Shown here one piece after another: positions 61 through 62,790 of a stretch of 64,000 bases of DNA; position 1 is the first letter of the stretch, and every line of letters starts with the position of its first letter. The notes below the pieces were generated by a model. It did not search any database and was not told the DNA's origin. It worked only from the letters and a program-made list of their open reading frames with translations. Both the position numbers and the translations under genes were made by a program. Source of the stretch: Desulfobacterales bacterium (lineage in GTDB: Bacteria; Desulfobacterota; Desulfobacteria; Desulfobacterales; JAFDCJ01); contig JBATKU010000672.1 in the NCBI GenBank assembly GCA_049669725.1, positions 9,286 to 73,285 on the forward strand, read 5' to 3'.

Positions 61-236
61 GAAATCCCAAATTTCAAGCACCAAATTACAAATAAATTTC
101 AAATTCCAATATCCAATGACCGAAACCAATTTGGCATATTTTGACTCATATCCAGGTATTGTTCTTAGGTTTTGAATTTCGAATTTTGGTCATTGTGATT
201 TATTTGAAATTTGGGATTTGTTATTTGAAATTTTTT
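61..236. repeat. Long imperfect intergenic hairpin with arms built of 7-nt units (CAAATNN family)
   Basis: Left arm 61-130 reads as heptads (CAAATTT CAAGCAC CAAATTA CAAATAA ...). Right arm 169-236 is its imperfect reverse complement; AAATCCCAAATTTCAA pairs with TTGAAATTTGGGATTT, and CAATGACCGAAA pairs with TTTTGGTCATTG. Confidence 0.6.
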
Positions 237-266
237 AGTGGTCGCTAAGTTTTGGAGGGTGCTGAA

Positions 267-1082
267 ATGGAATTACAAGGTAAGGTTGCCCTTGTGCTGG
301 GAGCCATTAAGGGTATCGGCAAAGAAATCGGGCTGTCCCTGGCCAAGCACGGGGTAAAGGTAGCCCTGAATTATTTTGACTGGGAAGAAAAACTTGAGGG
401 GCTGAAACAGGATTTCGCCGCTACCGGCCGCCCTCATCTTATCCTTAAAACCAATCTGCTTAAAGTTGAAAAAACAGCCGGCCTGATTCAACGGGTCGTC
501 GATCATTTCGGCCGTCTTGACATTCTCATCAACAATATCGAACGCGGTGGCTGGCCCGTAGTTCACGGACCCTATATACCGGACCAGTGGGACCTTGAAA
601 TGGAGACCACCTTACGTGCCAAACGGTGGGCTTTTGAGGCCGCCCTGCCGCACCTGAAGGCCTCCGGAGACGGTGTCGTCGTCAATTTTTCCTCGATTGC
701 CGCAATCGTCGGACGCAGCGGACCGGCTGGCATGGTTTTCAACGATGGGTATGCGGCTGCTAATCGGGGGGTTTCGTCGTTGACCGAAACCTGGGCCCGC
801 CTGGGCGCCCCCCGGGTAAGGGTAAACGAGATCATGCTGGGCTTCGTCGCCACCCGTCACGCAGAAAAAACCCGGGGTTGGGATTTGCTGACCGAGGCTG
901 AGAAAAAAGCGCTTTTCGATCACACCCTGCTGCAACGCACCGGAACGGTGGACGATGTCGTTAAAGCCGTTCTCTTTATCCTCAAGGATGCGTCCTTTAT
1001 GACCGGCGCCGTGCTGCGACTGGATGGGGGGTATGTGCTGGGGGGCGAAAAAGTTCCCGATATGCCTCCCGGTGTGGTTTAG
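267..1082 (+). CDS. Short-chain dehydrogenase/reductase (SDR) family oxidoreductase
   Basis: ORF 252-1082. GGAGGG at 254-259 precedes ATG 267. It has an N-terminal Rossmann glycine motif (GAIKGIG) and an SDR-like layout. The expected YxxxK reads YAAAN(R), so it is atypical. Confidence 0.75.
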   Translation: MELQGKVALVLGAIKGIGKEIGLSLAKHGVKVALNYFDWEEKLEGLKQDFAATGRPHLILKTNLLKVEKTAGLIQRVVDHFGRLDILINNIERGGWPVVHGPYIPDQWDLEMETTLRAKRWAFEAALPHLKASGDGVVVNFSSIAAIVGRSGPAGMVFNDGYAAANRGVSSLTETWARLGAPRVRVNEIMLGFVATRHAEKTRGWDLLTEAEKKALFDHTLLQRTGTVDDVVKAVLFILKDASFMTGAVLRLDGGYVLGGEKVPDMPPGVV

Positions 1083-1110
1083 TAGCGTATTAAAAATCCT
1101 GCGGTTTGAG

Positions 1111-1250
1111 TCTAAGATACTCGATGCTGAATGCTCGATTCTCGTCTCTCGATACTCGATGAACGAGCAGCAAAATGGTCCTTACCGAGTATCGAGCATC
1201 CGGCATCGAGGATCCAGTATCAAATATCCAGCATCCAGAATCATGCATCG
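1111..1250. repeat. Heptamer-array hairpin between convergent genes
   Basis: Left arm: GATACTC GATGCTG AATGCTC GATTCTC GTCTCTC GATACTC GATGAAC. Right arm: ATCGAGC ATCCGGC ATCGAGG ATCCAGT ATCAAAT ATCCAGC ATCCAGA ATCATGC. The arms are mutually complementary (imperfectly). Confidence 0.75.
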
Positions 1251-1254
1251 CGCC

Positions 1255-2037
1255 CTATCGCAGGCGAATGTTTTTCCCCTTAATTCCCCAGATAAAGAGC
1301 TTGACCCACTCAAATCCGAACTTGAGCAATTGCAGATCGTCGGTTTTTAGCTTTTTGAGTAAAGCGGATTTTACCTTGTAGCGCCCTAAAAAACTGCTTT
1401 GGAAAATAAAATCCCGGAAGCGGTCGATATTGTATGTCGCCATGAAAGCCATTTTGGCTTTCGTTCCCTCGGAGCCTTCCATTCCCCAGGGATCTTCCTG
1501 GAACAGTCGTTTTACCTCTGCCCACCGCATGGTCATCTTGCGGTAAAGTTCTGCATCCTGATCCCGGGTCCATTCGGATATGGTCCACTCCTCTTTTTCA
1601 TCCTGCCCGCGGCAAAATTCCGGCGGTTTGAAGAAGTATACCGGCGTGTCTCTTTTCTGATCGGCATCATAGATCATCCCCACTTCGAAGGGAAAGGACC
1701 GGCAGGTATCCGGTCGGTCGGGATAAACGCGACACCCGGAAGCGGTCAAAAAAGGGCAGGATCTCTCCCGGGTTGACGACATGCGCAGCAGCACTTCAGG
1801 AAAGAAATTGGAAGGCCTTAGCACAACATCGACATGTTTATCTAGAAACTCATCTGAGGTTATACCCATGTATTGCTTTAACCGGACAACATCGTAAGGG
1901 TACAAATAAAGGTTCAAATTTCGGCAACAACGATTGAAGCAAGAAACATCAGAATAACAGCGAAAATTGAAGGTGTCATCCTTTTTAATGCGAATGCCGG
2001 GCAGGTTGCCTAATTTGTCAATATCAACTTTTTTCAT
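1255..2037 (-). CDS. YkgJ/UPF0153-type cysteine-cluster (putative Fe-S or Zn) protein
   Basis: 260-aa ORF with CFNRCCRN (CxxCC) and a second CPFL...C.VYPDRPDTCRSFP motif typical of the family. Confidence 0.7.
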   Translation of the reverse strand: MKKVDIDKLGNLPGIRIKKDDTFNFRCYSDVSCFNRCCRNLNLYLYPYDVVRLKQYMGITSDEFLDKHVDVVLRPSNFFPEVLLRMSSTRERSCPFLTASGCRVYPDRPDTCRSFPFEVGMIYDADQKRDTPVYFFKPPEFCRGQDEKEEWTISEWTRDQDAELYRKMTMRWAEVKRLFQEDPWGMEGSEGTKAKMAFMATYNIDRFRDFIFQSSFLGRYKVKSALLKKLKTDDLQLLKFGFEWVKLFIWGIKGKNIRLR

Positions 2038-2043
2038 AAAACC

Positions 2044-2117
2044 AAGGTGTCAGGTTTCAGGTGTCGGGTTTCAGAAATCCTGACCCGCAGAAATTGAAAC
2101 CTGACACCTGAAACCTT
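2044..2117. repeat. Heptamer-array hairpin (GGTGTCA/GGTTTCA units)
   Basis: GGTGTCA GGTTTCA GGTGTCG GGTTTCA faces TTGAAACCTGACACCTGAAACC. It fills the gap between two same-strand genes. Confidence 0.75.
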
Positions 2118-2120
2118 GCA

Positions 2121-2735
2121 TCAGTCCTTTTTCATTTGCGTTATACTCAAGATCATCTCAGCCACAGTCATTTTGATCTTACCCTCTATCCCAACCGTCT
2201 GTTTAAATTCGTTCTCCAGCTTAGCCATCTCTAAATAAAAGGGGGTTCGATCGAACTTAAAATAACCTTTGTGCGAACAACAATCATCAAAGGTGCCACA
2301 ACCCGGTCCCTGGATGACCTTTTGACCGGGTTTTTGAAGTTGGTGCGGAATGCCGTGCATCCGGCATATCATAGGTCTGACTGGATACAGGGTGCACAGG
2401 CTGCCATAATTCAACGGACACATCAGCCGTAACGGCATTTCTTTTTCATCTGCTCTGGCAGTGTCCCGGCAGACTTCTTCGGCCTTTGAAAGTATCTCGC
2501 CCTTTTTTCGAAAGTCCAGTTTTTCAAAACCCCTGCGAAGATAGTAATATTCCAGATAGGTATGATGATAGAAGCGGGTCAGGCAGCAATTATCCCTACA
2601 CCCGTCACACTGAAATTGATAGTGCTCGGTTGCCCGGTTATATTCCTGGTCCATGGCGGTAAAAATATCTCGCAACCGCTCAAGGAAATCAGTCAAAAGG
2701 CGGTCATCAAATTGAATTGGATTCGGTTCTAACAC
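2121..2735 (-). CDS. YkgJ-type cysteine-cluster protein (paralogous architecture)
   Basis: 204-aa ORF with CDGCRDNCC and MCPL..C.LYPVRPMICR motifs. Confidence 0.65.
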   Translation of the reverse strand: MLEPNPIQFDDRLLTDFLERLRDIFTAMDQEYNRATEHYQFQCDGCRDNCCLTRFYHHTYLEYYYLRRGFEKLDFRKKGEILSKAEEVCRDTARADEKEMPLRLMCPLNYGSLCTLYPVRPMICRMHGIPHQLQKPGQKVIQGPGCGTFDDCCSHKGYFKFDRTPFYLEMAKLENEFKQTVGIEGKIKMTVAEMILSITQMKKD

Positions 2736-2749
2736 AATTTAAACAAACC

Positions 2750-3808
2750 TTAGACAACAGGGGACGGGAAAAAGATTTTTTTATATAAATTCAGGGCATA
2801 ACGGTCGGTCATGGAGGCGATGACGTCACAGACAGTGCGTTCTTTGGTGTGATGGCTGTTGTAGCACCTGTCCATTTTCAGTTCGGCCAGCTTCTGTTCA
2901 AGGATTTGATCATTTCCAAGAAAATAGCTGTATAGCTCTGACAATATCTTTTTGGCTTTTTCAAAATCTTTATGAACTTTTGCTGAACGATACACGTTTT
3001 CGTAGAGAAATTGTCTCAACTCATTCATGGCAGCGTATACATCATCGGTCATTTGCAGTCGAAGTTCACCGTCCCGAACTTCACTGGTGGAAATAAGATC
3101 CCGAATCATTACCGTAGCCCGCTCTGAATGGGATTTCCCCAGGATTTTTATACAGGCTGGCGGCACCTGTGAGGCACGAACCACCTGGCTGCGAATCGCA
3201 TCTTCCAGGTCATGGTTCAGGTAGGCCATGATATCGGCAATTCTGACGATTTGCCCCTCATAAGTGCATGCCATTTCAGCAGGATCATCGGGGATGATTT
3301 TACCGAACCCCTTGGAGTGTTTCAATATCCCGTCTCTAACCTCATAGGTCAGATTGAGTCCCTGCCCATTATTCTCCAAGATCTCCACAACACGCAAACT
3401 CTGTTCGTTGTGTGAAAAATCCGCGGAATAAATTTCTTTTAGAGCAGTCTCACCGCTGTGCCCGAAGGGCGTATGGCCAAGATCGTGCCCCAGGGCGACG
3501 GCCTCTGCCAAATCCTCGTTGAGAAACAGAGCCCGCGTAATAGCTCTGGCCATTTGCGACACTTCCAGGGTGTGGGTTAATCGGGTCCGGTAATCATCGC
3601 CCAACGGAGAAAGAAAAACCTGGGTTTTGTGCTTAAGCCGACGGAAGCCGTTGGAATAAACAATGCGATCGCGATCCAGTTGAAAGGCCGTTCGGACCGG
3701 ACAATTCTTTTCCTCCTTTTCACGACCCCGACTTTCAGCACTCGGGCAGCCAAATGGTGACATAAATTTCTTTTCGCGTTTTTCAAATTCTTCCCGGATA
3801 GACATCAT
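2750..3808 (-). CDS. dGTP triphosphohydrolase-like HD-domain protein
   Basis: 352-aa ORF with RLTHTLEVSQ and GHDLGHTPFGHSGE (HD superfamily, dGTPase-like). Confidence 0.85.
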   Translation of the reverse strand: MMSIREEFEKREKKFMSPFGCPSAESRGREKEEKNCPVRTAFQLDRDRIVYSNGFRRLKHKTQVFLSPLGDDYRTRLTHTLEVSQMARAITRALFLNEDLAEAVALGHDLGHTPFGHSGETALKEIYSADFSHNEQSLRVVEILENNGQGLNLTYEVRDGILKHSKGFGKIIPDDPAEMACTYEGQIVRIADIMAYLNHDLEDAIRSQVVRASQVPPACIKILGKSHSERATVMIRDLISTSEVRDGELRLQMTDDVYAAMNELRQFLYENVYRSAKVHKDFEKAKKILSELYSYFLGNDQILEQKLAELKMDRCYNSHHTKERTVCDVIASMTDRYALNLYKKIFFPSPVV

Positions 3809-3883
3809 TCACCCTACTTAACAAAGTTGAAAAAGGTGTTATATTACCTCCAAGTATGTTTTATTGTAAAGGAATATATCATC

Positions 3884-4040
3884 CGTTCCGGGTTCAGGGT
3901 TCAAGAGTTCAAGGTTAGGTCAAATCTGATTGTCAGAAAAATGGCCTTAAACAATGAATCCGCCAAAGATCTGCCCACCAACAGCGGCCTTTTCTCGGAT
4001 CCTATACCCCTGAACGGTGAACCCTGAACCCGGAACCTTC
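3884..4040. repeat. Heptamer-array hairpin (GGGTTCA units) in a divergent promoter gap
   Basis: TTCCGGGTTCAGGGTTCA (3886-3903) pairs exactly with TGAACCCTGAACCCGGAA (4018-4035). The listed ORF 3827-4027 lies inside it and is probably an artefact. Confidence 0.75.
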
Positions 4041-4044
4041 AATC

Positions 4045-4596
4045 ATGAATGGACACCATTTAATACTGGGGGAACTCGACGATTTCGTCACCGGCGAACC
4101 CATAAAAGATACCCACGATGAGCGTTACCGTCAACAACTGGCGCGTCTGATAGTCAATAGCAAGGGGTATCTCAAAAGCGACATCGAGCCGCGCAGAAGC
4201 CTGCTTGTAGTGGCCGGTAAAAGCAAGGCCGTTATAAAAATTGATTTCTTGATAAAACTCTCCGGCAAAGTTTGCATGGTCATAAAGTACGGCCCCGGCT
4301 CCATTGTCACGCGCCGTCGACCGCTTCTGGCCATATCCAGGATATTAGAACCCTATCAGATCCCCATCGCGGTGGTTACCAACGGCGAAGATGCCGAGAT
4401 TATTGAAGGATCATCGGGGAATGTCATTTCCCGGGGTTTGGGAACCGTACCTTCCAAATCACAATTGATTGAAATTGCGTCCGGAAATCATTTTAAACCG
4501 ATTGCAGCCGAACGGGCAGAAAGGGAATCCCGAATCGTGTATTGCTATGAGGTGGACGGAAGCTGTCCGTGCGATGAGGATATATGTATATTATAA
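4045..4596 (+). CDS. Type I restriction enzyme HsdR N-terminal-like (PD-(D/E)xK-like) domain protein with a Cys-rich C-terminus
   Basis: 183-aa ORF whose pattern (..IDFLI..VCMVIKYG.....IAVVTNGEDAEI) resembles the HSDR_N_2 family. Assigned from memory of the family only. Confidence 0.45.
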   Translation: MNGHHLILGELDDFVTGEPIKDTHDERYRQQLARLIVNSKGYLKSDIEPRRSLLVVAGKSKAVIKIDFLIKLSGKVCMVIKYGPGSIVTRRRPLLAISRILEPYQIPIAVVTNGEDAEIIEGSSGNVISRGLGTVPSKSQLIEIASGNHFKPIAAERAERESRIVYCYEVDGSCPCDEDICIL

Positions 4597-4661
4597 ATGA
4601 TAGTGACAACTCTGAACGATTGCGTTACTTATCCACCTATGCTGAAGACCATACAGAATGC

Positions 4662-4822
4662 TTAAAATCAGAAATTCGAATATCTAAATTCGAAGCACAA
4701 AAATCTAATGACAAAAACATAAAACGAATATAGCTGATGTAAGGTCGCGTTGTTTTGTTCATTGAAACATTATGATTTCGAATTTGTTTCGGATTTCGAA
4801 ATTCGTGCTTTGAATTTATACT
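4662..4822. repeat. Heptamer-array hairpin (AAATTCG units)
   Basis: GAAATTC GAATATC TAAATTC GAAGCAC AAAAATC ... faces GATTTCGAATTTGTTTCGGATTTCGAAATTCGTGCTTTGAATTT. Confidence 0.65.
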
Positions 4823-4892
4823 TTTTTTAGGGCTTATTTCCAGCACCGTGTAATTGGTATATACACAATAAAACTTTACGATCGGCGAAAAA

Positions 4893-5393
4893 ATGAATTA
4901 TGAACTATTCATGACAGAGGCTCTGGCCCTGGCCGGGGGTGCGCTCGAACGCGGAGAGTTCCCGGTGGGTTGTGTTATGGTCCATCGGGGGAAAATCCTT
5001 GCTACCGGTGCCCGTAAAGGCACCATCGGAGATGGTAGAAATGAGCTTGACCATGCCGAAACGGTGGCCTTGAGGCGATTGATTGACCTCGATGAGCCAA
5101 TCAACCATGGTGAGGTAACCGTTTTCTGCACAATGGAACCCTGCCTGATGTGCTATGCCGCCCTGATTCTTGCAGGTATCGGCAAAATAGTATACGCCTA
5201 CGAAGATGTCATGGGCGGCGGCAGCGCTTGTGAGCTGTCTCGTCTGAAACCGCTCTACAAAAATAGCCCTATCACGGTGATCCCCGAAGTCATGCGAACG
5301 GAAAGCCTCAAATTATTTCAGACCTATTTTTCCAATCCGGCCAACAGTTACTGGAAAAACAGCCTACTGGCCGAATATACGCTGGCGCAATAG
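4893..5393 (+). CDS. CMP/dCMP-type zinc deaminase (TadA/nucleoside deaminase-like)
   Basis: HAE (..LDHAETVAL..) and PCxxC (EPCLMCYAAL) zinc motifs; 166 aa. Confidence 0.8.
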   Translation: MNYELFMTEALALAGGALERGEFPVGCVMVHRGKILATGARKGTIGDGRNELDHAETVALRRLIDLDEPINHGEVTVFCTMEPCLMCYAALILAGIGKIVYAYEDVMGGGSACELSRLKPLYKNSPITVIPEVMRTESLKLFQTYFSNPANSYWKNSLLAEYTLAQ

Positions 5394-5492
5394 GGTTCAA
5401 AGGTCTGGGTTTTGGCAAATGTAAAACCAGCGGAAATATAACAACGAAGGATATCGCGGCTTCGCAACCCTGAAACTTGAACCTCTGAACCC
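5393..5492. repeat. Heptamer-array hairpin (GGGTTCA family)
   Basis: GGGTTCAAAGGTCTGGGTTTTGG faces CAACCCTGAAACTTGAACCTCTGAACCC. It starts right at the deaminase stop codon. Confidence 0.65.
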
Positions 5493-5708
5493 ATAAAGCC
5501 TATTTTATAGCCCTAATTGAAAATTTCGCTTGCATTTTTTTCTTGCATTTCTTATTTTTGTTGTATATTCAACCAGATGGATTTTTGTTGAAACGGGGGG
5601 AGGATTCGGTCACCGCTGATAAACGGTATTTAAAGGACTGAGAGCCCTCTAACATGTTTGCCTGCAATCGCAAACCAACGTCATAATTGATAAACGAGGA
5701 GATAAGAC

Positions 5709-6248
5709 ATAGCTGCACCAAGAAAACCGCATCGACCGATTCGTAAAGACAGAGTTAACATCAACAAAAATATCAGGGCTAGAGAGGTAAGAGTTATAGA
5801 CCCTGATGGTAACCAGGTAGGCATTATTCCTACGATAGAGGCGCTTGACCAGGCAGCTGAATTCGGTCTCGACCTGGTGGAAGTTTCACCCAATGCAAAC
5901 CCTCCTGTTTGCAAAATTATGGATTACGGTCGCTATCGTTATGAGCAGACCAAAAAGAAGCAGGAAGCAAAAAAGAAACAAAGCACATTCCAGGTAAAGG
6001 AGATTAAAGTTCGCCCCAAGACGGGTGAACATGATCTGCAGGTCAAAATCGGACACATAAAGAAGTTTATCGGTCGCCGAGATAAAGTCAAAGTGACCGT
6101 GGTTTTCAGAGGACGAGAAATCACCCTGTCCAAGCTGGGGATGGCCGTGCTCGAAAAAGTTGCCGAGGAGACCGAGGAATTCGCTTCAGTAGAGCAGGCC
6201 CCCAAATTTGAAGGCCGAACCCTGGCAATGATTTTAGGACCGAGATAG
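5709..6248 (+). CDS. infC: Translation initiation factor IF-3, non-AUG (ATA) start
   Basis: The frame of ORF 5877-6248 stays open back to a TAA at 5703. The extension reads ..INKNIRAREVRVIDPDGNQVGIIPTIEALDQAAEFGLDLVEV, a canonical IF-3 N-domain. GAGGAG at 5695-5700 sits 8 nt before ATA 5709, and no in-frame ATG lies upstream of 5910. Confidence 0.85.
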   Translation: MAAPRKPHRPIRKDRVNINKNIRAREVRVIDPDGNQVGIIPTIEALDQAAEFGLDLVEVSPNANPPVCKIMDYGRYRYEQTKKKQEAKKKQSTFQVKEIKVRPKTGEHDLQVKIGHIKKFIGRRDKVKVTVVFRGREITLSKLGMAVLEKVAEETEEFASVEQAPKFEGRTLAMILGPR

Positions 6249-6316
6249 TTTGACGTTTTATACCGCTAATACAAGGCACCGACCAAGAAACTAATTACAG
6301 TATTGATTCTGACGGT

Positions 6317-6356
6317 GGCGTGGGCCGGTCTTCGAAAGCTCACGCCATCTATTTTT
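6317..6356 (+). terminator. Hairpin plus T-tract downstream of infC (possible attenuator or terminator)
   Basis: GGCGTGGGC-12 nt-GCTCACGCC (one mismatch) followed by ATCTATTTTT. Confidence 0.35.
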
Positions 6357-6534
6357 AATTACTCTACAAAAATACTAATTTTTCGCCGGCTTAGATTTTA
6401 TACCGCTTTCCATAAATATGTTCCCAAATACAGAATTGCGGTATAAGTGGTTGTAGAAAAAACGTTTGAACAACGGAACGTTTTTTTGACAACTCCTATA
6501 AAATGTTTAAGCTGGCAGGTGAAGGAGAAGATTC

Positions 6535-6732
6535 ATGCCGAAGATAAAAACCAATCGTGCTGCTGCCAAACGTTTTAAAAGAACCGGAACTGGAAAATTT
6601 GTATTCAGAAAATCATGCGCCAGCCATATCCTGACCAAAAAGACCACCAAACGAAAACGATCGTTGCGGCAAGCACAGATTATTGCCAAATCCGACCGTA
6701 AGGAGATCCGGTTGCTGCTGCCCAACGGATAG
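6535..6732 (+). CDS. rpmI: 50S ribosomal protein L35
   Basis: [22 protein letters not shown]... is a canonical L35 N-terminus. GGAG lies upstream. Confidence 0.95.
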
Positions 6733-6879
6733 TTTTACAGATGACAAAAGGCAGATGGCAGAGAGTGACGGTCCAAACGATCGCAATTTATCCCATGAAA
6801 TTCTCTTGGCGACAGCGCAGCGTATTTCATCGGGACCATCAAAATGATCTTAACGATCTAAATAAACGAGGTACTTAAA

Positions 6880-7230
6880 ATGAGAATTAAACGCGGATTC
6901 AAAGCCAGGAGACGTCGCAAAAAGGTCTTGAAATTAGCCAAAGGTTTCCGCGGCGGCCGGAGTAAGCTGTTTCGTACAGCAGCAGATGCCGTCGATAAGG
7001 CGCTGATGTATTCTTATCGTGACCGCCGAACGCGCAAGCGCGATTTCCGAAGACTCTGGATTACCAGAATTAATGCTGCCTCCCGGCTCAACAAATTGCC
7101 CTACAGCAAATTCATTCGGGGGCTGAAGCTTGCCGGTGTTGAACTCGATCGCAAAGTTCTCGCCGAGCTGGCAATCTCAGACCCTGCCGGATTTGCGCAA
7201 ATTGCGAACCTAGCCGGCCAGCAACTATAG
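6880..7230 (+). CDS. rplT: 50S ribosomal protein L20
   Basis: [25 protein letters not shown]... is canonical L20. Confidence 0.95.
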
Positions 7231-7233
7231 GGA

Positions 7234-8277
7234 ATGACGAATGACATTCGTCATTCCAAGAGTGGAGATGTGGAAAATAATTTAGATCAAATACACCAGC
7301 AAGCACTCACAGAACTGAAAGGTGCTGAAAATGGCGGTGACATTGAGGATATCTCGATCCGCTACCTGGGTCGCAAAGGCATCCTGACCCAATTTTTACG
7401 AAATATTTCGAAACTGCCGGTCGTGCAAAGACCGGCGGCCGGCAAAAAGGCCAACGAAATTAAAAATGTCCTCGATAAGGTCTTTAAAGCTGCGGCTGAA
7501 AGGCTCGCATCCAAGAATGACGAAAAGGACAAAAGAATTGACGTCTCCCTGCCGGGCAGGATATCTACTCAAGGCACTTTGCATCCGATTACCCGGGTCA
7601 ACCAGGAAATATGTGACATTTTTTCTAGCCTGGGATTCGATATCGGAGAAGGACCGGAGGTAGAGTCGGACTGGTATAATTTTGAAGCCCTCAATTTTCC
7701 CAAAGATCATCCGGCAAGGGACATGCAGGATACCTTTTTTGTCAGCGAGGACATCGTATTAAGGACCCACACGTCGCCGCTTCAAATCCGTACCATGGAA
7801 AAACAGCCGCCGCCGGTAAGGATTATCACACCGGGTAAGGTGTACCGGTGCGATTCCGACCTGACCCATACCCCCATGTTCCACCAGGTGGAAGGGTTGC
7901 TGGTTGATGAATACATTTCTTTTGGCGATCTTAAAGGAATTCTCACCACCTTTGTCCACCAGATGTTTGATGAACAGACGAGTCTCCGTTTTCGGCCCAG
8001 TTTTTTTCCGTTTACCGAACCCAGTGCAGAGGTGGATATCCTTTGCGTCATGTGCCGGGGTCAGGGTTGCCGGGTCTGCTCACATACCGGATGGCTCGAA
8101 ATTCTCGGTTCCGGAATGGTTCACCCCGCCCTGTATGAGAATGTGGGCTATGAAGCCGATCGCTACACCGGGTTTGCATTCGGGATGGGAGTGGAACGAA
8201 TTGCCATGTTAAAATACGGCATCGATGATATCCGCCGGTTTTTTGAGAACGATATGCGGTTTCTGTTCCAATTCTGA
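7234..8277 (+). CDS. pheS: Phenylalanine--tRNA ligase alpha subunit
   Basis: 347 aa with class II aaRS motifs (..HPARDMQDTFF.., FRPSFFPFTEPS, GFAFGMGVERIAML). Confidence 0.95.
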   Translation: MTNDIRHSKSGDVENNLDQIHQQALTELKGAENGGDIEDISIRYLGRKGILTQFLRNISKLPVVQRPAAGKKANEIKNVLDKVFKAAAERLASKNDEKDKRIDVSLPGRISTQGTLHPITRVNQEICDIFSSLGFDIGEGPEVESDWYNFEALNFPKDHPARDMQDTFFVSEDIVLRTHTSPLQIRTMEKQPPPVRIITPGKVYRCDSDLTHTPMFHQVEGLLVDEYISFGDLKGILTTFVHQMFDEQTSLRFRPSFFPFTEPSAEVDILCVMCRGQGCRVCSHTGWLEILGSGMVHPALYENVGYEADRYTGFAFGMGVERIAMLKYGIDDIRRFFENDMRFLFQF

Positions 8278-12394: not shown

Positions 12395-12407
12395 ATGGAG
12401 ATCTCTG

Positions 12408-13892: not shown

Positions 13893-13947
13893 GTTGTGAT
13901 GTGGTTTTCGATCTATCAGATCGTTAAATAGGCTTTAGGGGGATGTA

Positions 13948-23852: not shown

Positions 23853-23878
23853 AATTCAGCAATTAATAATGCATAATT

Positions 23879-46641: not shown

Positions 46642-46700
46642 TGTTTGTTAGTATCTTAATTGTTATTTTTTCTGCCTTCTGTGGCTGAACTATTTATTAC

Positions 46701-46788
46701 GAAAGCACGAGAAAGAAAATATCGTGCTTTCTCCGCCGGCGGATGTTTTCGTGATTATTGATCTTTTATGGTTCTCCGCCTTCGGCGG
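46701..46788. repeat. Cluster of three short GC-rich hairpins inside the ACP-cassette gap
   Basis: GAAAGCACGA-12 nt-TCGTGCTTTC, TCCGCCGGCGGA, and TCCGCC-TTC-GGCGGA. Confidence 0.6.
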
Positions 46789-46802
46789 ATCCGGATTAGG
46801 CA

Positions 46803-51020: not shown

Positions 51021-51181
51021 GGCAAAAAATCGGCACTCTCAAAAGCACTGATACTGTAAACGTCTATGCAGAATTGACCGCCCTTCAAAATCTGTGATAT
51101 CAGATTACGATATCTGTAATTTTGCAAGGGTTGGGGTTACATCTTAACAAATGTTGCGAGAAAAGTCAGAGGTTCGATGAG

Positions 51182-51712
51182 ATGAAGTCTAAAATAGCTG
51201 AAACTCTGATAGCTTCACTCGGAACACTATTCTTCCTATTTTTGATAATTCCTTTCTTTTTGATCTGGATACCACGTAGAATCCTCTTATCGCCTGAACA
51301 TATTTACCGTTTTGACATAGGTGTATATCAGTATTTCGGTCTGGCTCCTATTGTTCTCGGTGTTGCAATATACATTTTGTGTTCTGGTAGTTTTGTATTT
51401 ATTGGCAAAGGTACGCCAATACCTTTTACGCCAACTAAAGAGTTAATAGTGACTGGATTATACAGATTTGTTAGAAATCCATTGTACATTGCTGGCGTTC
51501 TTGTTTTGGCAGGAGAAACAATTCTATTTCAATCTGTAGGCATATTTATTTATTGCTTGGTAATGTTTGGGGTTTTCAATGTCCATGTTCTCATGGAGGA
51601 AACGTTATTAGCAGAAAAATTTGGTGCGAGATACGAACAATATTGCAAGTCTGTTCCTCGCTGGATTCCAAGATTAAACCTCTATAGGAAAAAAGATATA
51701 GAGTCCAAATAA
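51182..51712 (+). CDS. Isoprenylcysteine carboxyl methyltransferase (ICMT)/phospholipid methyltransferase-family membrane protein
   Basis: ..LIVTGLYRFVRNPLYIAGVLVLAGE.. signature in a multi-pass membrane protein. Codon usage is AT-rich. Confidence 0.75.
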   Translation: MKSKIAETLIASLGTLFFLFLIIPFFLIWIPRRILLSPEHIYRFDIGVYQYFGLAPIVLGVAIYILCSGSFVFIGKGTPIPFTPTKELIVTGLYRFVRNPLYIAGVLVLAGETILFQSVGIFIYCLVMFGVFNVHVLMEETLLAEKFGARYEQYCKSVPRWIPRLNLYRKKDIESK

Positions 51713-51744: not shown

Positions 51745-51777
51745 TGAGCCTAAATTACAGATATCCTGCTATGCTAC
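51745..51777 (+). repeat. Right copy of the direct repeat flanking the ICMT-like gene
   Basis: See 50989-51020. By hand the two copies agree at the TGAGCCT, AATTAC and GATATC blocks and in part of the tail. Confidence 0.5.
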
Positions 51778-52091
51778 CCCTGTTTCAAGTATTTTCCCTT
51801 ATTCAACGACCAAATCATGCAATTTATCATAAACTGAAGAATATTTGGTTTTTAACCAACTTTACACTTTTAAGATTTTTGCTATCCCCTGAGTAATCAA
51901 CTTTTGCTAATTCTTTTTTTCTCCTAAGAGTGTCCCTATAAATCCAGGTTTTAATCTCTCCTTCCTGAAAACATTCGACTTTCATTACAAATTATTCTTA
52001 AGAGTTAATATAGAAATACCGATAAAGAATATGGGCTTAAAATCTTTGAAAATATCCATTGTCCATTATTTCTTAATCAAAAATTATTCAT

Positions 52092-58243: not shown

Positions 58244-58287
58244 AATGAACATCGAACATTGAACGTCCAACATCGAATGCTGAACGG
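58244..58287. repeat. Solo heptamer array (NNNGAAC units), no obvious partner arm
   Basis: AATGAAC ATCGAAC ATTGAAC GTCCAAC ATCGAAT GCTGAAC. It shares the 17-mer GAACGTCCAACATCGAA with 31880-31896. Confidence 0.65.
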
Positions 58288-58328
58288 AAAAAATAAGACA
58301 AAATCGATAGCACAGGAGACTTTACCCC

Positions 58329-59783
58329 ATGGATCTGAATGTAAAAAGATTCAATTCAACCCCGCTGGAGTACCTGTCCGAAGAACAGATGCGTGACATT
58401 CACTCAGCTGCCCTTGATATCCTGGAAGATTGCGGAACGATTATTCATCACGAAAAGTCCATAGACCTATTGCACAGAGCCGGCGCCTATGTGAAGGACG
58501 ACAAGCACGTGTTCATCCCCAGCGGCCTGGTGGAGTCAGCCATCCGTTCGGCTCCCCCAAGGGTCACCATTTATGACAGAACCGGCCGGCCGGCCATGTT
58601 TCTGGAGGGACGCAACGTTTATTACGGTACCGGTTCCGACTGTCCCTATCTGCTGGACAGCCTTACCGGGGAGCGCAGGGAATTTCTGTCCGCAGATGTT
58701 GAAGATGCCGTCAGACTGGTGGATGCTTTGCCGAACATTGACTTTACCATGTCAAACGGGCTGGCGCCTGATTTTCCAGCTGAACTGCAATACCAGTACA
58801 AATATGCCCTCATGATTCGCAACTCAATTAAACCCCAGGTGATTACAGCCGCCGACAAAACATCCTTAAACGATATCGCGGATATGGCGGCCGCTGTAGT
58901 TGGCGGGCGCCAAGAACTCAGCCGCAAACCCATCTTCGTATTGTATGACGAACCGACCTCACCCCTGGTGCATATCAGTGAAGCCATGGAAAAGCTGATG
59001 TTTATGGCGGAGCATAATCTGCCCACCAACTATTCTCCGGGAATCATGGCGGGTGGCACAAGCCCGGTCACCATGGCCGGCGCCATTGCCCAGGCCGACG
59101 CCGAAATTTTGGCCGGGCTCGTCATTCACCAGTTGACCAATGCGGGGGCCCCTTTTATTTTTGGTGCCGGCATGTCTCCCATGGACATGCAGAGCATGCA
59201 GCCCACCTATTCAGCTCCTGAAGCCATGATGACCCAGGCGGGGCTGTGTCAAATCGGCCGCTGTCTTTATGAACTCCCGACCTGGGGGTTTGGCGGCTGC
59301 AGCGCCGCTAAGCTGGCCGATGAGCAGGCGGTCAATGAAGCAGCCACCTACATCATGATGGCCGGATGGGCAGGTACCAATCTCGTGCATGATGTCGGTT
59401 ATCTGGAATTCGGGCTCACTTATTCCTTCGACCTGCTGGTGATGTGTAACGAATTTATCGGCCAGGTCAGGCGTATGATGGGGGGCATCCCGGTTGACAG
59501 GGAAAACCTGGCAGTTGAAAGCATCAAACGCGTCGGGCCAGGTGGGCATTTTCTCAGTGATGACCACACCCTGGATCATTTCCGTGAAAACTGGCAGCCT
59601 GATTTAACCGACAGAAGGACATATGAAGACTGGCAAAGCAGGGGCGCTAAAAGTATGGGACAGCTGGCCAAAGAAAAAATCAAGAAAATTAAGGCAAGCC
59701 ATCAAACGGAACCGCTCCCGCCGGAAATTGATGCGGAAATCGAAAGAGTGCTCGAACACGCAAGGAGTCGGTTAACCGGTTAG
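58329..59783 (+). CDS. MttB-superfamily (trimethylamine methyltransferase-like) protein, non-pyrrolysine type
   Basis: 484 aa and MttB-like throughout (..YGTGSDCPY.., ..GAGMSPMDM.., ..GPGGHFL..). There is no in-frame TAG. AGGAG lies 10 nt upstream. Confidence 0.75.
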   Translation: MDLNVKRFNSTPLEYLSEEQMRDIHSAALDILEDCGTIIHHEKSIDLLHRAGAYVKDDKHVFIPSGLVESAIRSAPPRVTIYDRTGRPAMFLEGRNVYYGTGSDCPYLLDSLTGERREFLSADVEDAVRLVDALPNIDFTMSNGLAPDFPAELQYQYKYALMIRNSIKPQVITAADKTSLNDIADMAAAVVGGRQELSRKPIFVLYDEPTSPLVHISEAMEKLMFMAEHNLPTNYSPGIMAGGTSPVTMAGAIAQADAEILAGLVIHQLTNAGAPFIFGAGMSPMDMQSMQPTYSAPEAMMTQAGLCQIGRCLYELPTWGFGGCSAAKLADEQAVNEAATYIMMAGWAGTNLVHDVGYLEFGLTYSFDLLVMCNEFIGQVRRMMGGIPVDRENLAVESIKRVGPGGHFLSDDHTLDHFRENWQPDLTDRRTYEDWQSRGAKSMGQLAKEKIKKIKASHQTEPLPPEIDAEIERVLEHARSRLTG

Positions 59784-59907: not shown

Positions 59908-61149
59908 ATGAATGATCACAAACCGTTTTTTATGCGCGATCCATGGATATATGACCCCGCAGCACGGCGGTCGAAGCGTGCCGATGGTGATATGGGCTTT
60001 GACACCCGGGCGTTGCATGCCGGGTTTCATCCCCTGCAGGATCTGGAACCGTACCGGTCATTTGTACCGCCGATCACTCAATCCATGACATTTCCCTATA
60101 AGACATTTGACGACATACCATGCCCTGTTTACGGCCGGACCCGCACCCCGACCAACACCCTGCTGGAAGAGCGTCTGGCATCGCTGGAGGGCGGCGAGGC
60201 CTGCATTACGGCCGGATCGGGATCCCAGGCCTTGTTCAATCTCATTTTCACCATAGCGCGGCCGGGCGATAATGTGGTCACCTCCCTGAATGTCTTCGGA
60301 GAGGGCTATAAACAGGCCGCCACCATATTTCCGGAACGATGTCAGGTAGAATTTCGATTTGTGCAGGATCCGGGCAATCCCGACTCCTGGGATTCACTGA
60401 TTGATCAGAACACCAAATTGATCTGGGTGGAGACCCCCAGCAATCCCTGTCTTTTTATCACCAACATTGCTGCGGTTGCAGATGTGGCCCATTCCCGCAG
60501 CGTCCCACTAATGGTGGACAACACCACAGCCACCGCCGCACTGCAGACCCCCATGGACATGGGGGCGGATATAATTCTGCTTTCCATCACCAAGTTTTTG
60601 GCCGGCAACGCCACGGTCATCGGAGGCGCCGTTGTCGGGCCGGAAAACCTGGTGGAAGACATCCGCTGGAATACCACTGAATTTTTGGGTTCGGTTATCC
60701 CTCCGCTGGAGGCCTGGATGACCTTGCAGTATTTAGAAACACTTTCCATGCGGATGCAGCGACACAGTTCGAACGCCCAGGCCATCGCCGAGTATTTGGC
60801 ATCCCATCCCGGGGTAACCCGCGTCAATTATTCCGGACTGCCGGATCACCCCCAGCATGAGTTGGCAAAGCAACAGATGAAAACCCACGGCGGCCTGTTA
60901 TCATTTGTGGTGCAAAATGGCATGGCAGGAGCGGCTGCAGTAATGAATGCCTTTAAGCTGGTTGTACATGCCGTCACTTTCGGAACCAGCAAAACCATCT
61001 GCATGCACCCGGCAACCATCACCCACGAGCACATGACACCCCGGGAGCGCACCGAAGCAGGCATCGATGACGGGCTGATCCGATTTTCGGTGGGCCTTGA
61101 GAATCCGGAAGACATCATTGCGGATTTGGACCAGGCATTATCAAAATAG
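59908..61149 (+). CDS. Cys/Met-metabolism PLP-dependent enzyme family (gamma-lyase/sulfhydrylase-like)
   Basis: ..VDNTTATAALQTPMDMGADIILLSITKFLAG.. contains the PLP-Lys block, and ..FSVGLENPEDIIADLDQAL.. is the typical C-terminus. Confidence 0.8.
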   Translation: MNDHKPFFMRDPWIYDPAARRSKRADGDMGFDTRALHAGFHPLQDLEPYRSFVPPITQSMTFPYKTFDDIPCPVYGRTRTPTNTLLEERLASLEGGEACITAGSGSQALFNLIFTIARPGDNVVTSLNVFGEGYKQAATIFPERCQVEFRFVQDPGNPDSWDSLIDQNTKLIWVETPSNPCLFITNIAAVADVAHSRSVPLMVDNTTATAALQTPMDMGADIILLSITKFLAGNATVIGGAVVGPENLVEDIRWNTTEFLGSVIPPLEAWMTLQYLETLSMRMQRHSSNAQAIAEYLASHPGVTRVNYSGLPDHPQHELAKQQMKTHGGLLSFVVQNGMAGAAAVMNAFKLVVHAVTFGTSKTICMHPATITHEHMTPRERTEAGIDDGLIRFSVGLENPEDIIADLDQALSK

Positions 61150-61225
61150 CTGATAGCTCGTGGCTGATAGCTGATAGTCTAAAAGATTGAAATCCATTTG
61201 ACTATGAGCTATAGGACATGAGCTC
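61149..61225. repeat. Heptamer-array hairpin (GCTGATA units) starting at the stop codon
   Basis: GCTGATA GCTCGTG GCTGATA GCTGATA faces CTATGAGCTATAGGACATGAGCTC. Same family as 23776-23852. Confidence 0.75.
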
Positions 61226-61298
61226 TTGACTATTTTACTCACGAACCAAATCTGGATTTAAACAGATTATAGCAGGCTCATTTAATGGAGGACTTAAG

Positions 61299-62603
61299 GT
61301 GAAAAAAAGGTATGACGCTATCATTATCGGGGCCGGGGTTATCGGTGCCGCCATCGCTTTCGAGTTGGCCAAAAAAGGCTACAAAACCCTTAATGTCGAC
61401 AAACTGCCATCGGCCGGCTACGGATCTACCTCCGGCTCATGTGCCGTCATCCGCTTCCATTACTCCACTCCCGACGGCGTGGCCACGGCCCGGGAAGGGT
61501 ATTATTACTGGATCAACTGGCCCGAATATCTGCGGGCCGAAGACGAACTCGGCCTGGTAAATTTCATTAATACCGGCTGTCTGGTGTTTAAAACCGAACT
61601 CAATCAGTACCTAAAAAATGTCATGAACAGTCTTACAGACCTCGACATTGATTATGAGGAACTGGATATCGCAGAAATTAAAGCACGCTATCCCTTTCTG
61701 GATACCCGCAAGTATTTTCCGGTAAAATTGCCCGACGACCCCGGGTTTGCAGAGGCCACCGGTGATGCTGTAGCAGGGGCCATATTTATCCCCGAGTCGG
61801 GCTATATCTCCGATCCCCAGCTTTCCACCCACAACCTTCAGCGGGCGGCAGAGGCCAGGGGCGGCCGGTTTCTTTTCAATGCCGAGGTGGTTGATATTCA
61901 TAAGGAAAACAACCGGGTGGCCGGTGTTGCACTGAAGGACGGCACCCGGATCGATGCCCCTATTGTCGTTAATGTCGCCGGTCCGCACTCCTATATTATC
62001 AACCGCCTGGCCGGTGTGGAAGAAGGCATGAATATCAAGACCCGGGCTCTGCGCCAGGAAGTCTGCCATATTCCGCCACCCGATGGCATGGACTACCAGA
62101 AAGAGGGGGTGATGATTTCCGACAGTGATATCGGGTGCTATTCCAGACCCGAGACGGGCAACCATATACTGGTGGGTTCGGAAGATCCGGAATGCGATGA
62201 GCGCGAATGGGTGGATCCGGACAACTATGACAGAAATTTTTCCAAACAGTGGACAGCCCAGGTTTTGCGGGAAGCGCAACGCATTAAGGGACTGCGTGTG
62301 CCGAATCAAATGCAGGGAGTGGTAGATCTTTACGACGTTTCAGATGACTGGATCCCTATCTACGACAAATCGGATCTGGCCGGTTTTTATATGGCTGTCG
62401 GCACTTCCGGCAACCAGTATAAAAATGCCCCCGTGGCGGGGGCGATGATGGCTGAACTGATAGATAAAGTGGAGGCCGGACACGACCATGACGGCAACCC
62501 GGTACAATTCTTTATGAAATACACCGGGCGAACCTTTAATATGGGTTTTTATTCCCGCCTGCGAGAAATTAATCCGGCCAGCAGTTTTTCGGTGGTCGGC
62601 TGA
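61299..62603 (+). CDS. FAD-dependent oxidoreductase (DAO family; sarcosine/dimethylglycine-oxidase-like)
   Basis: YDAIIIGAGVIGAAIAFELAKKG dinucleotide fold. GTG start after GGAGGA. 434 aa. Confidence 0.75.
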   Translation: MKKRYDAIIIGAGVIGAAIAFELAKKGYKTLNVDKLPSAGYGSTSGSCAVIRFHYSTPDGVATAREGYYYWINWPEYLRAEDELGLVNFINTGCLVFKTELNQYLKNVMNSLTDLDIDYEELDIAEIKARYPFLDTRKYFPVKLPDDPGFAEATGDAVAGAIFIPESGYISDPQLSTHNLQRAAEARGGRFLFNAEVVDIHKENNRVAGVALKDGTRIDAPIVVNVAGPHSYIINRLAGVEEGMNIKTRALRQEVCHIPPPDGMDYQKEGVMISDSDIGCYSRPETGNHILVGSEDPECDEREWVDPDNYDRNFSKQWTAQVLREAQRIKGLRVPNQMQGVVDLYDVSDDWIPIYDKSDLAGFYMAVGTSGNQYKNAPVAGAMMAELIDKVEAGHDHDGNPVQFFMKYTGRTFNMGFYSRLREINPASSFSVVG

Positions 62604-62631
62604 CCGGCTCACAGGCAAGGTGATTCGCCCC

Positions 62632-62790
62632 AATTGGAATTGTGGAATACCGAAATTTTGGAATATGGGTCTTGGGGAAACGCAACATCAGGTAAATGGC
62701 AAAACTCGTCTTGAAGAATGATTTTATAATGAATGATATCCCTTGAATACCCATTATTCCATCGTTCCACTATTCCATTATTCCATGAAT
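62632..62790. repeat. Octamer-array hairpin element, copy 2 (paralogue of 23078-23240)
   Basis: CCAATTGG AATTGTGG AATACCGA AATTTTGG faces GAATACCC ATTATTCC ATCGTTCC ACTATTCC ATTATTCC. Confidence 0.8.

Follow-up and report, generated by a model that had tools for sequence, protein, structure and literature searches.

Introduction

Intergenic tandem arrays of heptanucleotide units have been noticed in Geobacter, Xanthomonas, the Beggiatoaceae and, as STRR sequences, the cyanobacteria, where each has been treated as a local oddity and never explained. Arrays of this kind are described here for a 64-kb stretch of DNA from an uncultured Desulfobacterales bacterium of the sulfate-reducer type (contig JBATKU010000672.1, positions 9,286 to 73,285; this whole stretch of 64,000 nt is referred to as the window), in which 17 intergenic loci carry such arrays, mostly as hairpins whose two arms are tandem arrays of 7-nt, and sometimes 8-, 9- or 10-nt, units. 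These elements are best, if tentatively, read as non-autonomous dispersed repeats of the foldback type that are remodelled by slippage of the heptamers. In eukaryotes, the Foldback elements (Drosophila FB, Galileo) possess inverted arms that consist of tandem arrays of short units, and the arm length varies between copies. To our knowledge, no prokaryotic element has been classified as Foldback-type.

Among the closest described systems, paired "putative global regulator binding sites" of classes 1–3 were catalogued in Geobacter metallireducens (Aklujkar et al. 2009, BMC Microbiol 9:109; PMC2700814). Class 1 comprises 24 pairs with four octanucleotide repeats GTTGCTYN, and insertion sequence (IS) elements lie at a fixed distance from class 1 sites; class 2 comprises 21 pairs with three TCTCCGTS[Y] repeats, and class 3 comprises eight pairs with five heptanucleotide repeats MTYCTGA. 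The paired sites lie on opposite strands at variable spacing, for example in the proB-proA gap, and binding by integration host factor (IHF) or HU was proposed as a hypothesis in the same paper. In Xanthomonas, 70–75 convergent inverted GGGAATC pairs per genome were reported, which lie between the same genes in sister species, vary in length and could form stem-loops (Rehm et al. 2015, PLoS One; PMC4692102). TAACTGA direct repeats are located beside start codons in Beggiatoaceae, cyanobacteria and Bacteroidetes (MacGregor 2015; PMC4679880). According to Mrazek (2007), as quoted in PMC4679880 and PMC4692102, heptanucleotide repeats are the commonest class of long simple sequence repeat (SSR) in most prokaryotic genomes, and polymerase slippage was proposed for them. 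Furthermore, deletion of a heptamer repeat altered reporter expression in Nostoc (bioRxiv 10.1101/2022.06.06.494920). Repetitive extragenic palindromic (REP) units are 20–40-nt palindromes with GTAG or CGTC tags that are associated with REP-associated tyrosine transposases (RAYTs) (PMC3733652). The architecture of paired inverted arrays is already catalogued in Geobacter and Xanthomonas, with a function established in neither study. A literature search found no paper on heptamer repeats in organisms with names beginning in Desulfobacter or on the GGTGTCA repeat.

Periodicity and pairing of the intergenic arrays

On a crude gene map of the window with 55 open reading frames (ORFs), 81% of the DNA is coding and 19% non-coding, the intergenic DNA amounting to 11,992 nt. 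In this intergenic DNA, the identity at lag 7 is 0.2906, whereas 200 shuffles that preserve dinucleotides gave 0.2606 ± 0.0041 (z 7.3); identity is also raised at lags 14 and 21 (z 5.2 and 5.1), and all remaining lags from 1 to 24 have z values of 1.7 or less. Coding DNA over the same lags possesses the codon period of 3 only, with no excess at lag 7. The heptamer periodicity that a preliminary description of this DNA had claimed from reading the letters is borne out by these values. A strict sliding detector located 13 period-7 segments in the window, all 13 of them non-coding, in agreement with the earlier statement that a 7-nt period does not belong to coding sequence. The odd low-complexity ORFs that had been attributed to the arrays, 1024-1350 and 3827-4027 on the plus strand and 23007-23261 on the minus strand, do exist, run through elements and are spurious. 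The repeat sequences quoted in that description lie where it had placed them, and its count of at least 17 loci agrees with the census.

Tandem Repeats Finder and an inverted-repeat search of the window agree on the described architecture, that is, an inverted repeat with arms that are tandem arrays of 7-, 8- or 9-nt units. The former program returned 14 arrays of period 7 and also recovered the period of 8 ascribed to the TGGAA/ATTCC family and that of about 9 ascribed to the arms of 34970-35440 (Table 1). The inverted arms found by the latter search are 19–51 nt long, with 73–100% complementarity. Predicted RNA folds gave z values of −7.2 to −2 against 100 shuffles in 14 of 15 elements, with values of −7.2 to −4.9 at 2044-2117, 3884-4040, 61146-61230, 23776-23852, 42127-42290 and 36616-36754, and −2 to −4 in other elements. 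When the window and 160 fetched loci were taken together, 33 of 103 period-7 arrays had an inverted partner within 300 nt, compared with one to three in each of three orientation controls (reversed, complement and direct); of the 13 period-7 segments of the window alone, nine face such a partner. The complementarity of the arms, as claimed earlier, therefore exceeds that of both the shuffled and the orientation controls. Consisting of head-to-tail 7-nt units that are over-represented in intergenic DNA, the window arrays are at the same time long heptanucleotide SSRs.

Unit families and their dispersed copies

The preliminary description held that the units differ between loci, a statement that has to be abandoned. 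At least six unit families recur in the window, namely GGTGTCA (at 2044 and 42133), GCTCATA (23776 and 61146), TGGAATnn (23076 and 62640), GAACATC (31877 and 58244), GTTCAGG (3884 and 5393) and AAATTTC (61 and 4662), and recurrence extends to relatives and phage contigs. In three of the family pairs, the alignment runs on into both loop and flank (23050-23265 with 62610-62815, 23755-23875 with 61125-61255, and 40-260 with 4640-4845), the last two in inverted orientation. As direct-repeat families, D2 relates 23076-23242 to 62640-62790 over 119 nt at 72% identity, and in D3 the array at 58244-58290 is held in common with 31888-31923.

Outside the window, the composite element at 42127-42290 is homologous to positions 17630-17840 of locus L082, at a non-orthologous site and with an arm stretch identical at 24 of 24 positions, in a genome whose HD-domain protein is only ~75% identical to that of the window genome. 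Window positions 40-260 likewise match 1000-1240 of L095, from a relative with an HD-domain protein of ~75% identity. When 14-mers of the families were searched with up to two mismatches, for which ~13 chance matches are expected in 2 Mb, enrichment was found only in the window, L001, L082, L083 and L092. Because the homology extends through loops and flanks and across genomes, the elements represent dispersed repeat families and not independent local products. They also possess traits of transposable elements of the miniature inverted-repeat type (MITEs), being small and non-coding, with terminal inverted repeats and several dispersed homologous copies.

Differences between relatives

The closest relative, L001, is a fragment of a metagenome-assembled genome (MAG) named "Deltaproteobacteria bacterium" and is collinear with window positions 311-7320, with 89% identity in the HD protein and 80–89% identity in nucleotides. 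A metagenome scan gave no relative nearer than L001; the next-closest relatives are Desulfosarcina/Desulfobacteraceae MAGs at ~70%. A JGI metagenome contig and a Logan assembly made from SRR28060675 represent the same population as the window (L161, L162 and L166), with 99.95–100% identity, elements included. Relative to L001, a clean insertion of 166 nt is present at 3884-4040, where ATGAT may be a 5-bp duplication of the target, and 4662-4822 is missing at the orthologous L001 site. The hairpin at 1116-1247 has as its L001 ortholog a direct array of ~20 units of the same unit family, and the ortholog of 2044-2117 possesses different units together with a GGTTTAAGGTGTCAG remnant. Conversely, L001 carries a TTTTAGGCAT array with none at the corresponding window site. 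In an indel scan of 17 closely related locus pairs, none of the 15 inserts was heptamer-periodic.

Two insertions of other kinds were observed in these comparisons. Ordinary MITEs are also active in these lineages, as comparison of L034 with L097 reveals, at L034 2963-3120, a classical MITE-like insertion that is bounded by terminal inverted repeats, GTAAGCGTTTACAGGGCACC..., has duplicated 10 bp of its target, ATGATAACTT, and is not heptamer-periodic. At window positions 6393-6500, upstream of rpmI, a 108-nt insertion relative to L001 is not heptamer-periodic either and carries the ordinary hairpins TATACCGC/GCGGTATA and AACGTT...AACGTTTTTTT, the latter of which is terminator-like.

The spacers around rplT were followed further, since an exact-match look-up of ribosomal protein L20 supplied four more distinct rplT contexts. 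After the rplT stop codon, the sequence begins with GGAATGnCGAA and finishes with TTCGTCATTyC in every genome compared, and the interior varies. Read by eye, the interior units of the two arms number ~2/2 in the window and L166, where they form the 13+1+13 palindrome, ~7/3 in L167, 8/5 in L163-165, and 5/5 in L001, where the loop is larger and a T7 tail follows. The hairpin is 75–117 nt long in the relatives versus 27 nt in the window, and because all relatives carry long forms, the window palindrome at 7234-7260 is most simply explained by central collapse. The neighbouring rpmI-rplT spacer has a length of 49 nt in L167, where it is empty, of 132 nt in L163-165, with a TTAGTTA-type hairpin, and of 146 nt in the window, with CAGATGn units; in L001, stacked arrays take up more than 230 nt.

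The abundance of the arrays is that of a clade-specific bloom over a weak general heptamer excess. Period-7 arrays number 20 per 100 kb in the window, 97 in L001 and 28 in relatives at 75–79%, compared with 5.7 in other Desulfobacterales-like loci and 2.8 in all remaining loci; in these last two groups, periods 5, 8, 10 and 11 each occur at ~1–2 per 100 kb.

CTGA core, chirality and carriage by phages

CTGA/TCAG is the top-enriched tetranucleotide in the consensus units, occurring in 21 of 105 arrays where 5.7 are expected (z 6.7), and the TCAG-type arm lies 5' in 26 of 28 CTGA-core hairpins, counts that are inflated by the common ancestry of copies and that cover several families and genomes of varied composition. 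Outside the window clade, nine arrays contain the motif compared with 3.0 expected. A hairpin of the form A-loop-rc(A) reads identically on both strands, which makes the arm order a true chirality, and in the Geobacter class 3 pairs the TCAG arm is 5' in eight of eight. In loci picked by housekeeping gene and not by motif, ACACCTG, which equals GGTGTCA, is the commonest exactly doubled unit.

The families are also carried by phages. The 17-mer CAGGTGTCAGGTGTCAG has 72 exact matches in a viral contig collection, and the fetched viral stretches have a mean GC of 0.59, compared with 0.48 for the window; some of these matches form tight inverted pairs that end a few bases upstream of a start codon. 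Portal, protease, major head, tape measure and primase genes identify L188 and L175 as genuine tailed phages, and L175 carries the window families GAACATC, CAGAGGT, GTTCAGG and GGTGTCA. In two contigs of the viral collection, heptamer arrays of many families number 22 (L224; 13.6 kb, GC 0.62, with a Mu-like prophage protease/scaffold gene) and 19 (L220; 11.4 kb, GC 0.69). The families include GGGGATT, known as the unit of Nostoc, and CAGTTGT/ACTGACn, which closely resembles TAACTGA. In the Desulfobacterales-like metagenome contig L092, a giant hairpin at 241-469 of ~19 + 13 units, with CAGTTGT/CAGTGGC facing AACTGAC/AACTGAA, contains an exact TAACTGA.

Distribution of the elements in the window

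The census comprises 14 two-armed hairpins, one collapsed palindrome, one single-arm array and one remnant (Table 1). Together, the 17 loci span ~2.3 kb, or ~19% of the intergenic DNA, at an extreme density of about one element per 4 kb; about one third of the intergenic gaps carry one, and convergent, tandem and divergent gaps are used alike. As read from the sequence, nine of 16 elements start within 8 nt of a stop codon; upstream of the element at 61146, the Pfam match of the encoded protein extends to residue 411 of 413. The single-arm array at 58244-58290 has no inverted partner and no plus-strand fold signal. The period-9 arms of the large element at 34970-35440 recur without the core, around short loops, in L019 and L083.

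Table 1. Heptamer-array elements and related loci of the window. Inverted repeats are given by their labels in the inverted-repeat search, and fold z values with the folded interval for some of the elements.
Position	Type	Units and arms	Context	Tandem Repeats Finder (period: positions)	Inverted repeats	Fold z
61-236	Hairpin	AAATYYC/GAAATTT family; arms ~61-123 and 176-236	Followed by T6 run	7: 202-233	I9, I11, I19	−3.6
1116-1247	Hairpin	GATACTC/GATGCTG; arms 1116-1164 and 1186-1247	Convergent gap	7: 1116-1160, 1191-1242	I3, I8 (74–86% complementary)	−3.1/−4.0
2044-2117	Hairpin	GGTGTCA/GGTTTCA, CTGA core; arms 2044-2075 and 2093-2117; TCAG arm 5'	Fills 83-nt gap of two minus-strand genes	7: 2045-2074, 2095-2116	I16 (22 nt, 95% complementary)	−7.2 (2040-2120)
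3884-4040	Hairpin	GTTCAGG/CCTGAAC	Divergent gap; ends 5 nt ahead of ATG at 4045	7: 3885-3916, 4008-4037	I20 (19 nt, 100% complementary)	−6.5 (3880-4042)
4662-4822	Hairpin	AAATTCG family	Followed by T7 run			−2.0
5393-5492	Hairpin	GGTTCAR/CTGAACC	Begins at deaminase gene stop codon	7: 5466-5491		−2.5/−3.3
6735-6762	Short single array (remnant); period-7 segment	CAGATGR	rpmI-rplT spacer			
7234-7260	Perfect 13+1+13 palindrome, 27 nt	GACGAAT	Directly after rplT stop			
23076-23242	Hairpin	Period-8 arms TGGAATnn / nnATTCCA		8: 23079-23129, 23200-23234	I10, I18	
23776-23852	Hairpin	GCTCATA/GCTCGTA	Begins at dUTPase stop codon	7: 23775-23804, 23831-23852	I24	−6.0 (23772-23856)
31877-32067	Hairpin	GAACATC/GAACGTC/CAACATC	Convergent gap	14	I5	−3.5
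34970-35440	Large element	Period-9 arms TGCCTAAAT / ATTTTAGGC (34970-35013, 35396-35440) around 380-nt structured core		9: 34973-35008, 35399-35440	I2, I4, I7	−12 (whole element)
36616-36754	Hairpin	CCGTG-containing units, period ~10	Fills DAO-Fer2_3 gene gap	10: 36719-36744	I21	−4.9 (36606-36758)
42127-42290	Composite hairpin	Outer GGTGTCA arrays, inner CAGAnnn/TCTGnnn arrays	Begins at stop codon	7: 42133-42154, 42253-42282	I1, I6, I14, I15	−5.5 (42125-42295)
58244-58290	Single-arm array	GAACATC family	39 nt upstream of MTTB-family gene	7: 58247-58277		
61146-61230	Hairpin	ATAGCTG/ATAGCTC	First unit provides stop codon of upstream gene	7: 61146-61177		−6.1 (61143-61235)
62640-62790	Hairpin	Period-8 arms, TGGAATnn family	Convergent gap; second copy of 23076-23242	8: 62751-62786		

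Two side observations concern the elements themselves. The starts at 2037 (minus strand), 4045, 35446 and 36762 lie 5–8 nt past a hairpin 3' arm, with no Shine-Dalgarno sequence by eye, and these start calls look right because the Pfam domains begin at residues 3–32. The loop of the period-9 element, 35014-35395, is GC-richer and holds an inverted repeat of 33 nt with 94% complementarity (35064-35096 / 35248-35280). Neither Rfam nor the fetched loci yielded a match to this loop, which may represent another element lying within the first, or else an RNA of unknown kind.

Pairing at the RNA or the DNA level

In elements with a defined transcription direction, the stem mismatches on the sense strand are 24 of G·U type and 24 of A·C type, and over all stems the 86 transversion mismatches outnumber the 63 transition mismatches. 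Since G·U and A·C mismatches are equal in number, there is no signature of selection for RNA pairing, and the symmetry is a property of the DNA level. An RNA structure under purifying selection, which would underlie some of the roles suggested in the preliminary description, is thus unsupported by the mismatch spectrum. Its suggestion of terminators keeps only the runs of at least six T that, by eye, follow 61-236 and 4662-4822 and no other element; an intrinsic terminator scan of positions 1-8000 gave seven sites versus 9.2 expected, none of them at gene ends or elements. A canonical Rho-independent terminator was rejected, since the scan of 1-8000 is not above chance and a U tract is missing, by eye, from most elements. 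Elsewhere in the window, for example at ~46690-46790 and 6460-6490, short GC-rich hairpins that resemble canonical terminators can be seen by eye. At the gathering threshold of Rfam, a tRNA-Gly is the sole match in the window and no element was matched, and at E ≤ 1 there are two weak matches, neither related to the elements. No described family with a known function matches them, which was the third point on which the preliminary description could have failed, after the lag-7 excess and the arm complementarity.

A heptamer that contains a stop codon puts stops in all three frames after three units. A stop-bearing arm is present in ~5 of 7 period-7 families compared with ~49% expected, which is not significant, and a triple-frame stop trap was rejected. 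Integron attC sites were set aside as improbable: RYYYAAC-like strings are present in 31877-31925, but the genes are housekeeping genes and there is no cassette array.

Possible origins of the elements

Non-autonomous foldback-type dispersed repeats remodelled by heptamer slippage are the best reading of the elements, held with a confidence that falls slightly short of even. Several families, composed of inverted tandem arrays around a variable loop, would spread their copies to intergenic spacers through transposition in trans or ectopic copying, and the phages that carry copies may transfer them between genomes. In place, the copies would undergo rapid remodelling at the DNA level, in which replication slippage could add or remove whole units, template switching between the arms could maintain rough complementarity, and central deletions could shrink long hairpins to short palindromes. 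Copies would survive only where genes stay intact and would end up packed against stop and start codons, and any effects on transcripts, as mRNA hairpins, or on DNA-binding proteins would be a consequence. The mode of mobilisation, the action of slippage and template switching, and the absence of a selected function are put forward with the same reserve. In favour of this reading are the homologous copies at unrelated loci, the composite element held in common with L082, the gain and loss of elements between relatives, the four states of the rplT-pheS locus and the variable rpmI-rplT spacer, the strand symmetry of the stem mismatches, as expected of a process acting on DNA, the use of all types of gap, the bloom in one clade, the carriage by tailed phages, and the general abundance of heptanucleotide SSRs for which slippage was proposed. 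Several points weigh against it. Evidence of target-site duplication comes from one junction only, ATGAT at 3884-4040. No transposase, RAYT or reverse transcriptase is present among 40 window ORFs scanned, and the ORFs between distant inverted arrays on the fetched contigs, a limited search space, are phage structural genes with no autonomous element among them. The presence of at least eight unit families in a single genome would require many mobilising enzymes, or one that reads structure and not sequence. The rplT hairpin is held at one site over ~17% nucleotide divergence, which could reflect selection. CTGA-core heptamers of the same chirality recur across contigs of GC 0.48–0.69 and in Geobacter, and arrays lie in many successive intergenic gaps of the compact phage contigs L224 and L220; a host factor with sequence specificity would explain this recurrence and this density no less well than a selfish element would. 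A purely local origin in which nothing moves, with each hairpin growing from a small palindrome, e.g., a terminator stem, by slippage of both arms and template-switch correction, and with shared units as the result of convergent mutational bias, would account for the growth or collapse in situ between conserved outer ends in the rplT-pheS series, for the long direct arrays with drifting units in L001, and for the general heptamer SSR excess of prokaryotes, together with the weak period-7 excess even in distant loci (2.8 arrays per 100 kb versus ~1–1.6 for periods 5, 8, 10 and 11). It is nevertheless very unlikely, since loops and flanks are common to copies at unrelated loci, the 166-nt insertion is clean, the window and L082 have kept one order of outer and inner arrays at sites that are not orthologous, identical 17-mers are found in phage genomes of differing GC, and the chirality is one-sided.

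On the other hand, the arrays could be cis-acting recognition arrays for a conserved host factor, a rather unlikely explanation and yet the main rival, in which a conditional hairpin or bend would punctuate operons and phages would copy the signals of their hosts. Candidates for the factor are DNA-bending or nucleoid proteins (IHF/HU, as suggested for Geobacter by Aklujkar et al.), or a protein that binds single strands with a ~7-nt footprint (cold-shock-domain, S1 or RRM, as suggested for TAACTGA by MacGregor); the punctuation may consist of insulation, processing, termination or translation start, and probes would include (GGTGTCA)4 and (ATTCTGACTCCTGA)2. The enrichment of CTGA/TCAG and the fixed chirality in both the hairpins and Geobacter speak for such a factor, as do the identical GGTGTCA arrays just upstream of start codons in contigs of high mean GC, including genuine phages, and the density of arrays in compact phage genomes. 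The four window genes that start shortly after a 3' arm resemble the position of TAACTGA in Beggiatoaceae (PMC4679880), the hairpin after rplT is kept across the clade, the Nostoc reporter changed on heptamer deletion (bioRxiv 10.1101/2022.06.06.494920), and an RRM-domain protein is encoded in the window. In contrast, many unrelated families coexist, the CTGA core is present in only ~1/5 of the arrays, the same spacer undergoes fast gain, loss and family replacement between close relatives, the copy number is free from 2 to ~20 units, the stems lack a G·U bias, the binding protein has been identified in no organism, and shared ancestry inflates the chirality and motif counts. A more specific and still less probable proposal is that the CTGA-core arrays, with the TCAG arm 5' and the CTGA arm 3', are recognition arrays of one conserved putative sequence-specific machinery, which could be a binding or nicking protein with a ~7-nt footprint or an array-writing enzyme, in Desulfobacterota, Beggiatoaceae, cyanobacteria and their phages. 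If this were true, Geobacter class 3, Beggiatoa TAACTGA and the GGTGTCA hairpins would constitute one cross-phylum intergenic punctuation system. Selected RNA elements, such as factor-independent terminators, REP-like 3'-end stabilisers as in E. coli, or RNase III processing sites, would fit the start of over half the elements next to a stop codon, the terminator scan of 1-8000 with its lack of canonical terminators above chance or at gene ends, the stable predicted RNA folds, and the T6–T7 runs after two window elements and the rplT hairpin of L001. They are hardly probable in view of the balanced G·U and A·C counts, the many transversion mismatches, the lack of a U tract by eye in most elements, the presence of elements in divergent promoter gaps (3884-4040, 58244), the existence of single-arm arrays, and the canonical terminator-like hairpins elsewhere in the window.

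If selfish, the elements would correspond in prokaryotes to the Foldback transposons of eukaryotes, and in Desulfobacterales MAGs they would be a large source, so far without annotation, of spurious ORFs and of breaks in assembly. If a host factor binds them, they would represent an unknown layer of operon punctuation that is open to testing in the culturable Geobacter metallireducens GS-15.

Gene context and neighbouring features

The genes of the window are ordinary and include those for an SDR, an HD phosphohydrolase, a deaminase, an IF3 C-terminal-domain protein, L35, L20, PheS and a PheT-like synthetase beta subunit, as well as dUTPase, peptidases, oxidoreductases and an MTTB-family methyltransferase. 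A small RNA-binding protein with an RRM_1 domain (Pfam E 3.5e-24) is encoded at 24996-25373 on the minus strand and is flanked by unusually long non-coding stretches, 24695-24995 and 25374-26064; among bacteria, RRM proteins are likewise characteristic of the cyanobacteria, which are the other heptamer-rich lineage. Downstream of the single-arm array, the MTTB-family (trimethylamine methyltransferase-like) ORF at 58329-59783 is uninterrupted over 484 aa and contains, at 59290-59397, a sub-threshold PYLIS_3 match (25.7 bits versus a gathering threshold of 38, E 0.31); because there is no in-frame stop, it is presumably a non-pyrrolysine member of the family.

Three further regions are distinct from their surroundings. 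No ORF reaches 90 aa over the 1.35 kb at 27395-28740, although the window is dense elsewhere; small genes, pseudogenes or a non-coding RNA may lie there. An inverted repeat of 34 nt with 74% complementarity (51089-51122 / 51752-51785) brackets a PEMT/ICMT-like methyltransferase ORF at 51122-51712. The surrounding stretch at 50–56 kb is low in GC (0.39–0.42) and also encodes an AAA/DUF4143 ATPase and a hybrid histidine kinase of the PAS/GAF type; the region may be an island that was acquired, or else a segment capable of inversion. Six in-frame 24-nt (8-aa) repeats at 13711-13902, at the 3' end of ORF 12384-13892 and just upstream of an 861-aa ORF at 13948-16533, are a coding repeat unrelated to the heptamer elements.

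Comparison with known systems

The claim that the elements are unlike known families holds for REP and CRISPR sequences, whereas the novelty that it implied does not stand beside the Geobacter (PMC2700814) and Xanthomonas (PMC4692102) pairs. REP units, together with the bacterial interspersed mosaic elements (BIMEs) and REPINs, are, like the window elements, abundant intergenic palindromic repeats, often present as inverted doublets in operon spacers. They were rejected as an identity because 1,144 nt of arms contain one GTAG and three CGTC, compared with ~9 of each by chance, and because the arms are periodic and non-palindromic. A CRISPR array was rejected because the units are 7–9 nt long, contiguous and arranged in inverted pairs, in contrast to repeats of 24–48 nt with unique spacers. 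MITEs and Foldback elements are likewise small, non-coding and dispersed, with inverted ends; the window elements differ in having no known partner transposase and a possible duplication at one junction only.

Intergenic heptamer arrays are found in Xanthomonas and Nostoc as well (GGGAATC, GGGGAYT; PMC4692102), with inverted pairs in Xanthomonas. Xanthomonas possesses one G-rich unit per genome, which was studied as a G-quadruplex former, whereas the window has many families that are not G-rich; as the window units are mostly not G-rich, G-quadruplex formation is impossible for most of them. The TAACTGA repeats resemble the window elements in their CTGA core, their intergenic location, often a few nucleotides from a start codon without a Shine-Dalgarno sequence, and their patchy spread across phyla. 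In Beggiatoa, however, 169 direct sets and one inverted set were counted (PMC4679880), whereas the inverted pair is the rule in the window.

The pairs of G. metallireducens, like those of the window, are intergenic, lie on opposite strands at variable distance, consist of 3–5 tandem repeats of 7–9 nt and fall into several classes per genome. Unit variants alternate in both, as ATTCTGA/CTCCTGA in Geobacter and GGTGTCA/GGTTTCA in the window, both organisms belong to the Desulfobacterota, and both sets occur within operons. Moreover, the class 3 repeat MTYCTGA has the CTGA core and the chirality of the window GGTGTCA, GTTCAGG and CAGAnnn families. No window family equals a Geobacter consensus, although 36616-36754 has the TCCGTG of class 2 (by eye), and the 8–24 pairs per class in Geobacter compare with more than 1,000 elements in the window genome, as extrapolated. 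PMC2700814 gave no account of evolutionary dynamics, carriage by phages or dispersal. To these earlier catalogues, the present analysis adds the bloom in one clade, orthologs in which the outer units are conserved and the interior varies, gains and losses among close relatives, the absence of an RNA-pairing signal, and the CTGA core with its chirality; the inverted-pair architecture, the CTGA core, the fixed chirality and the carriage by tailed phages may connect the scattered reports on heptamer arrays with one another.

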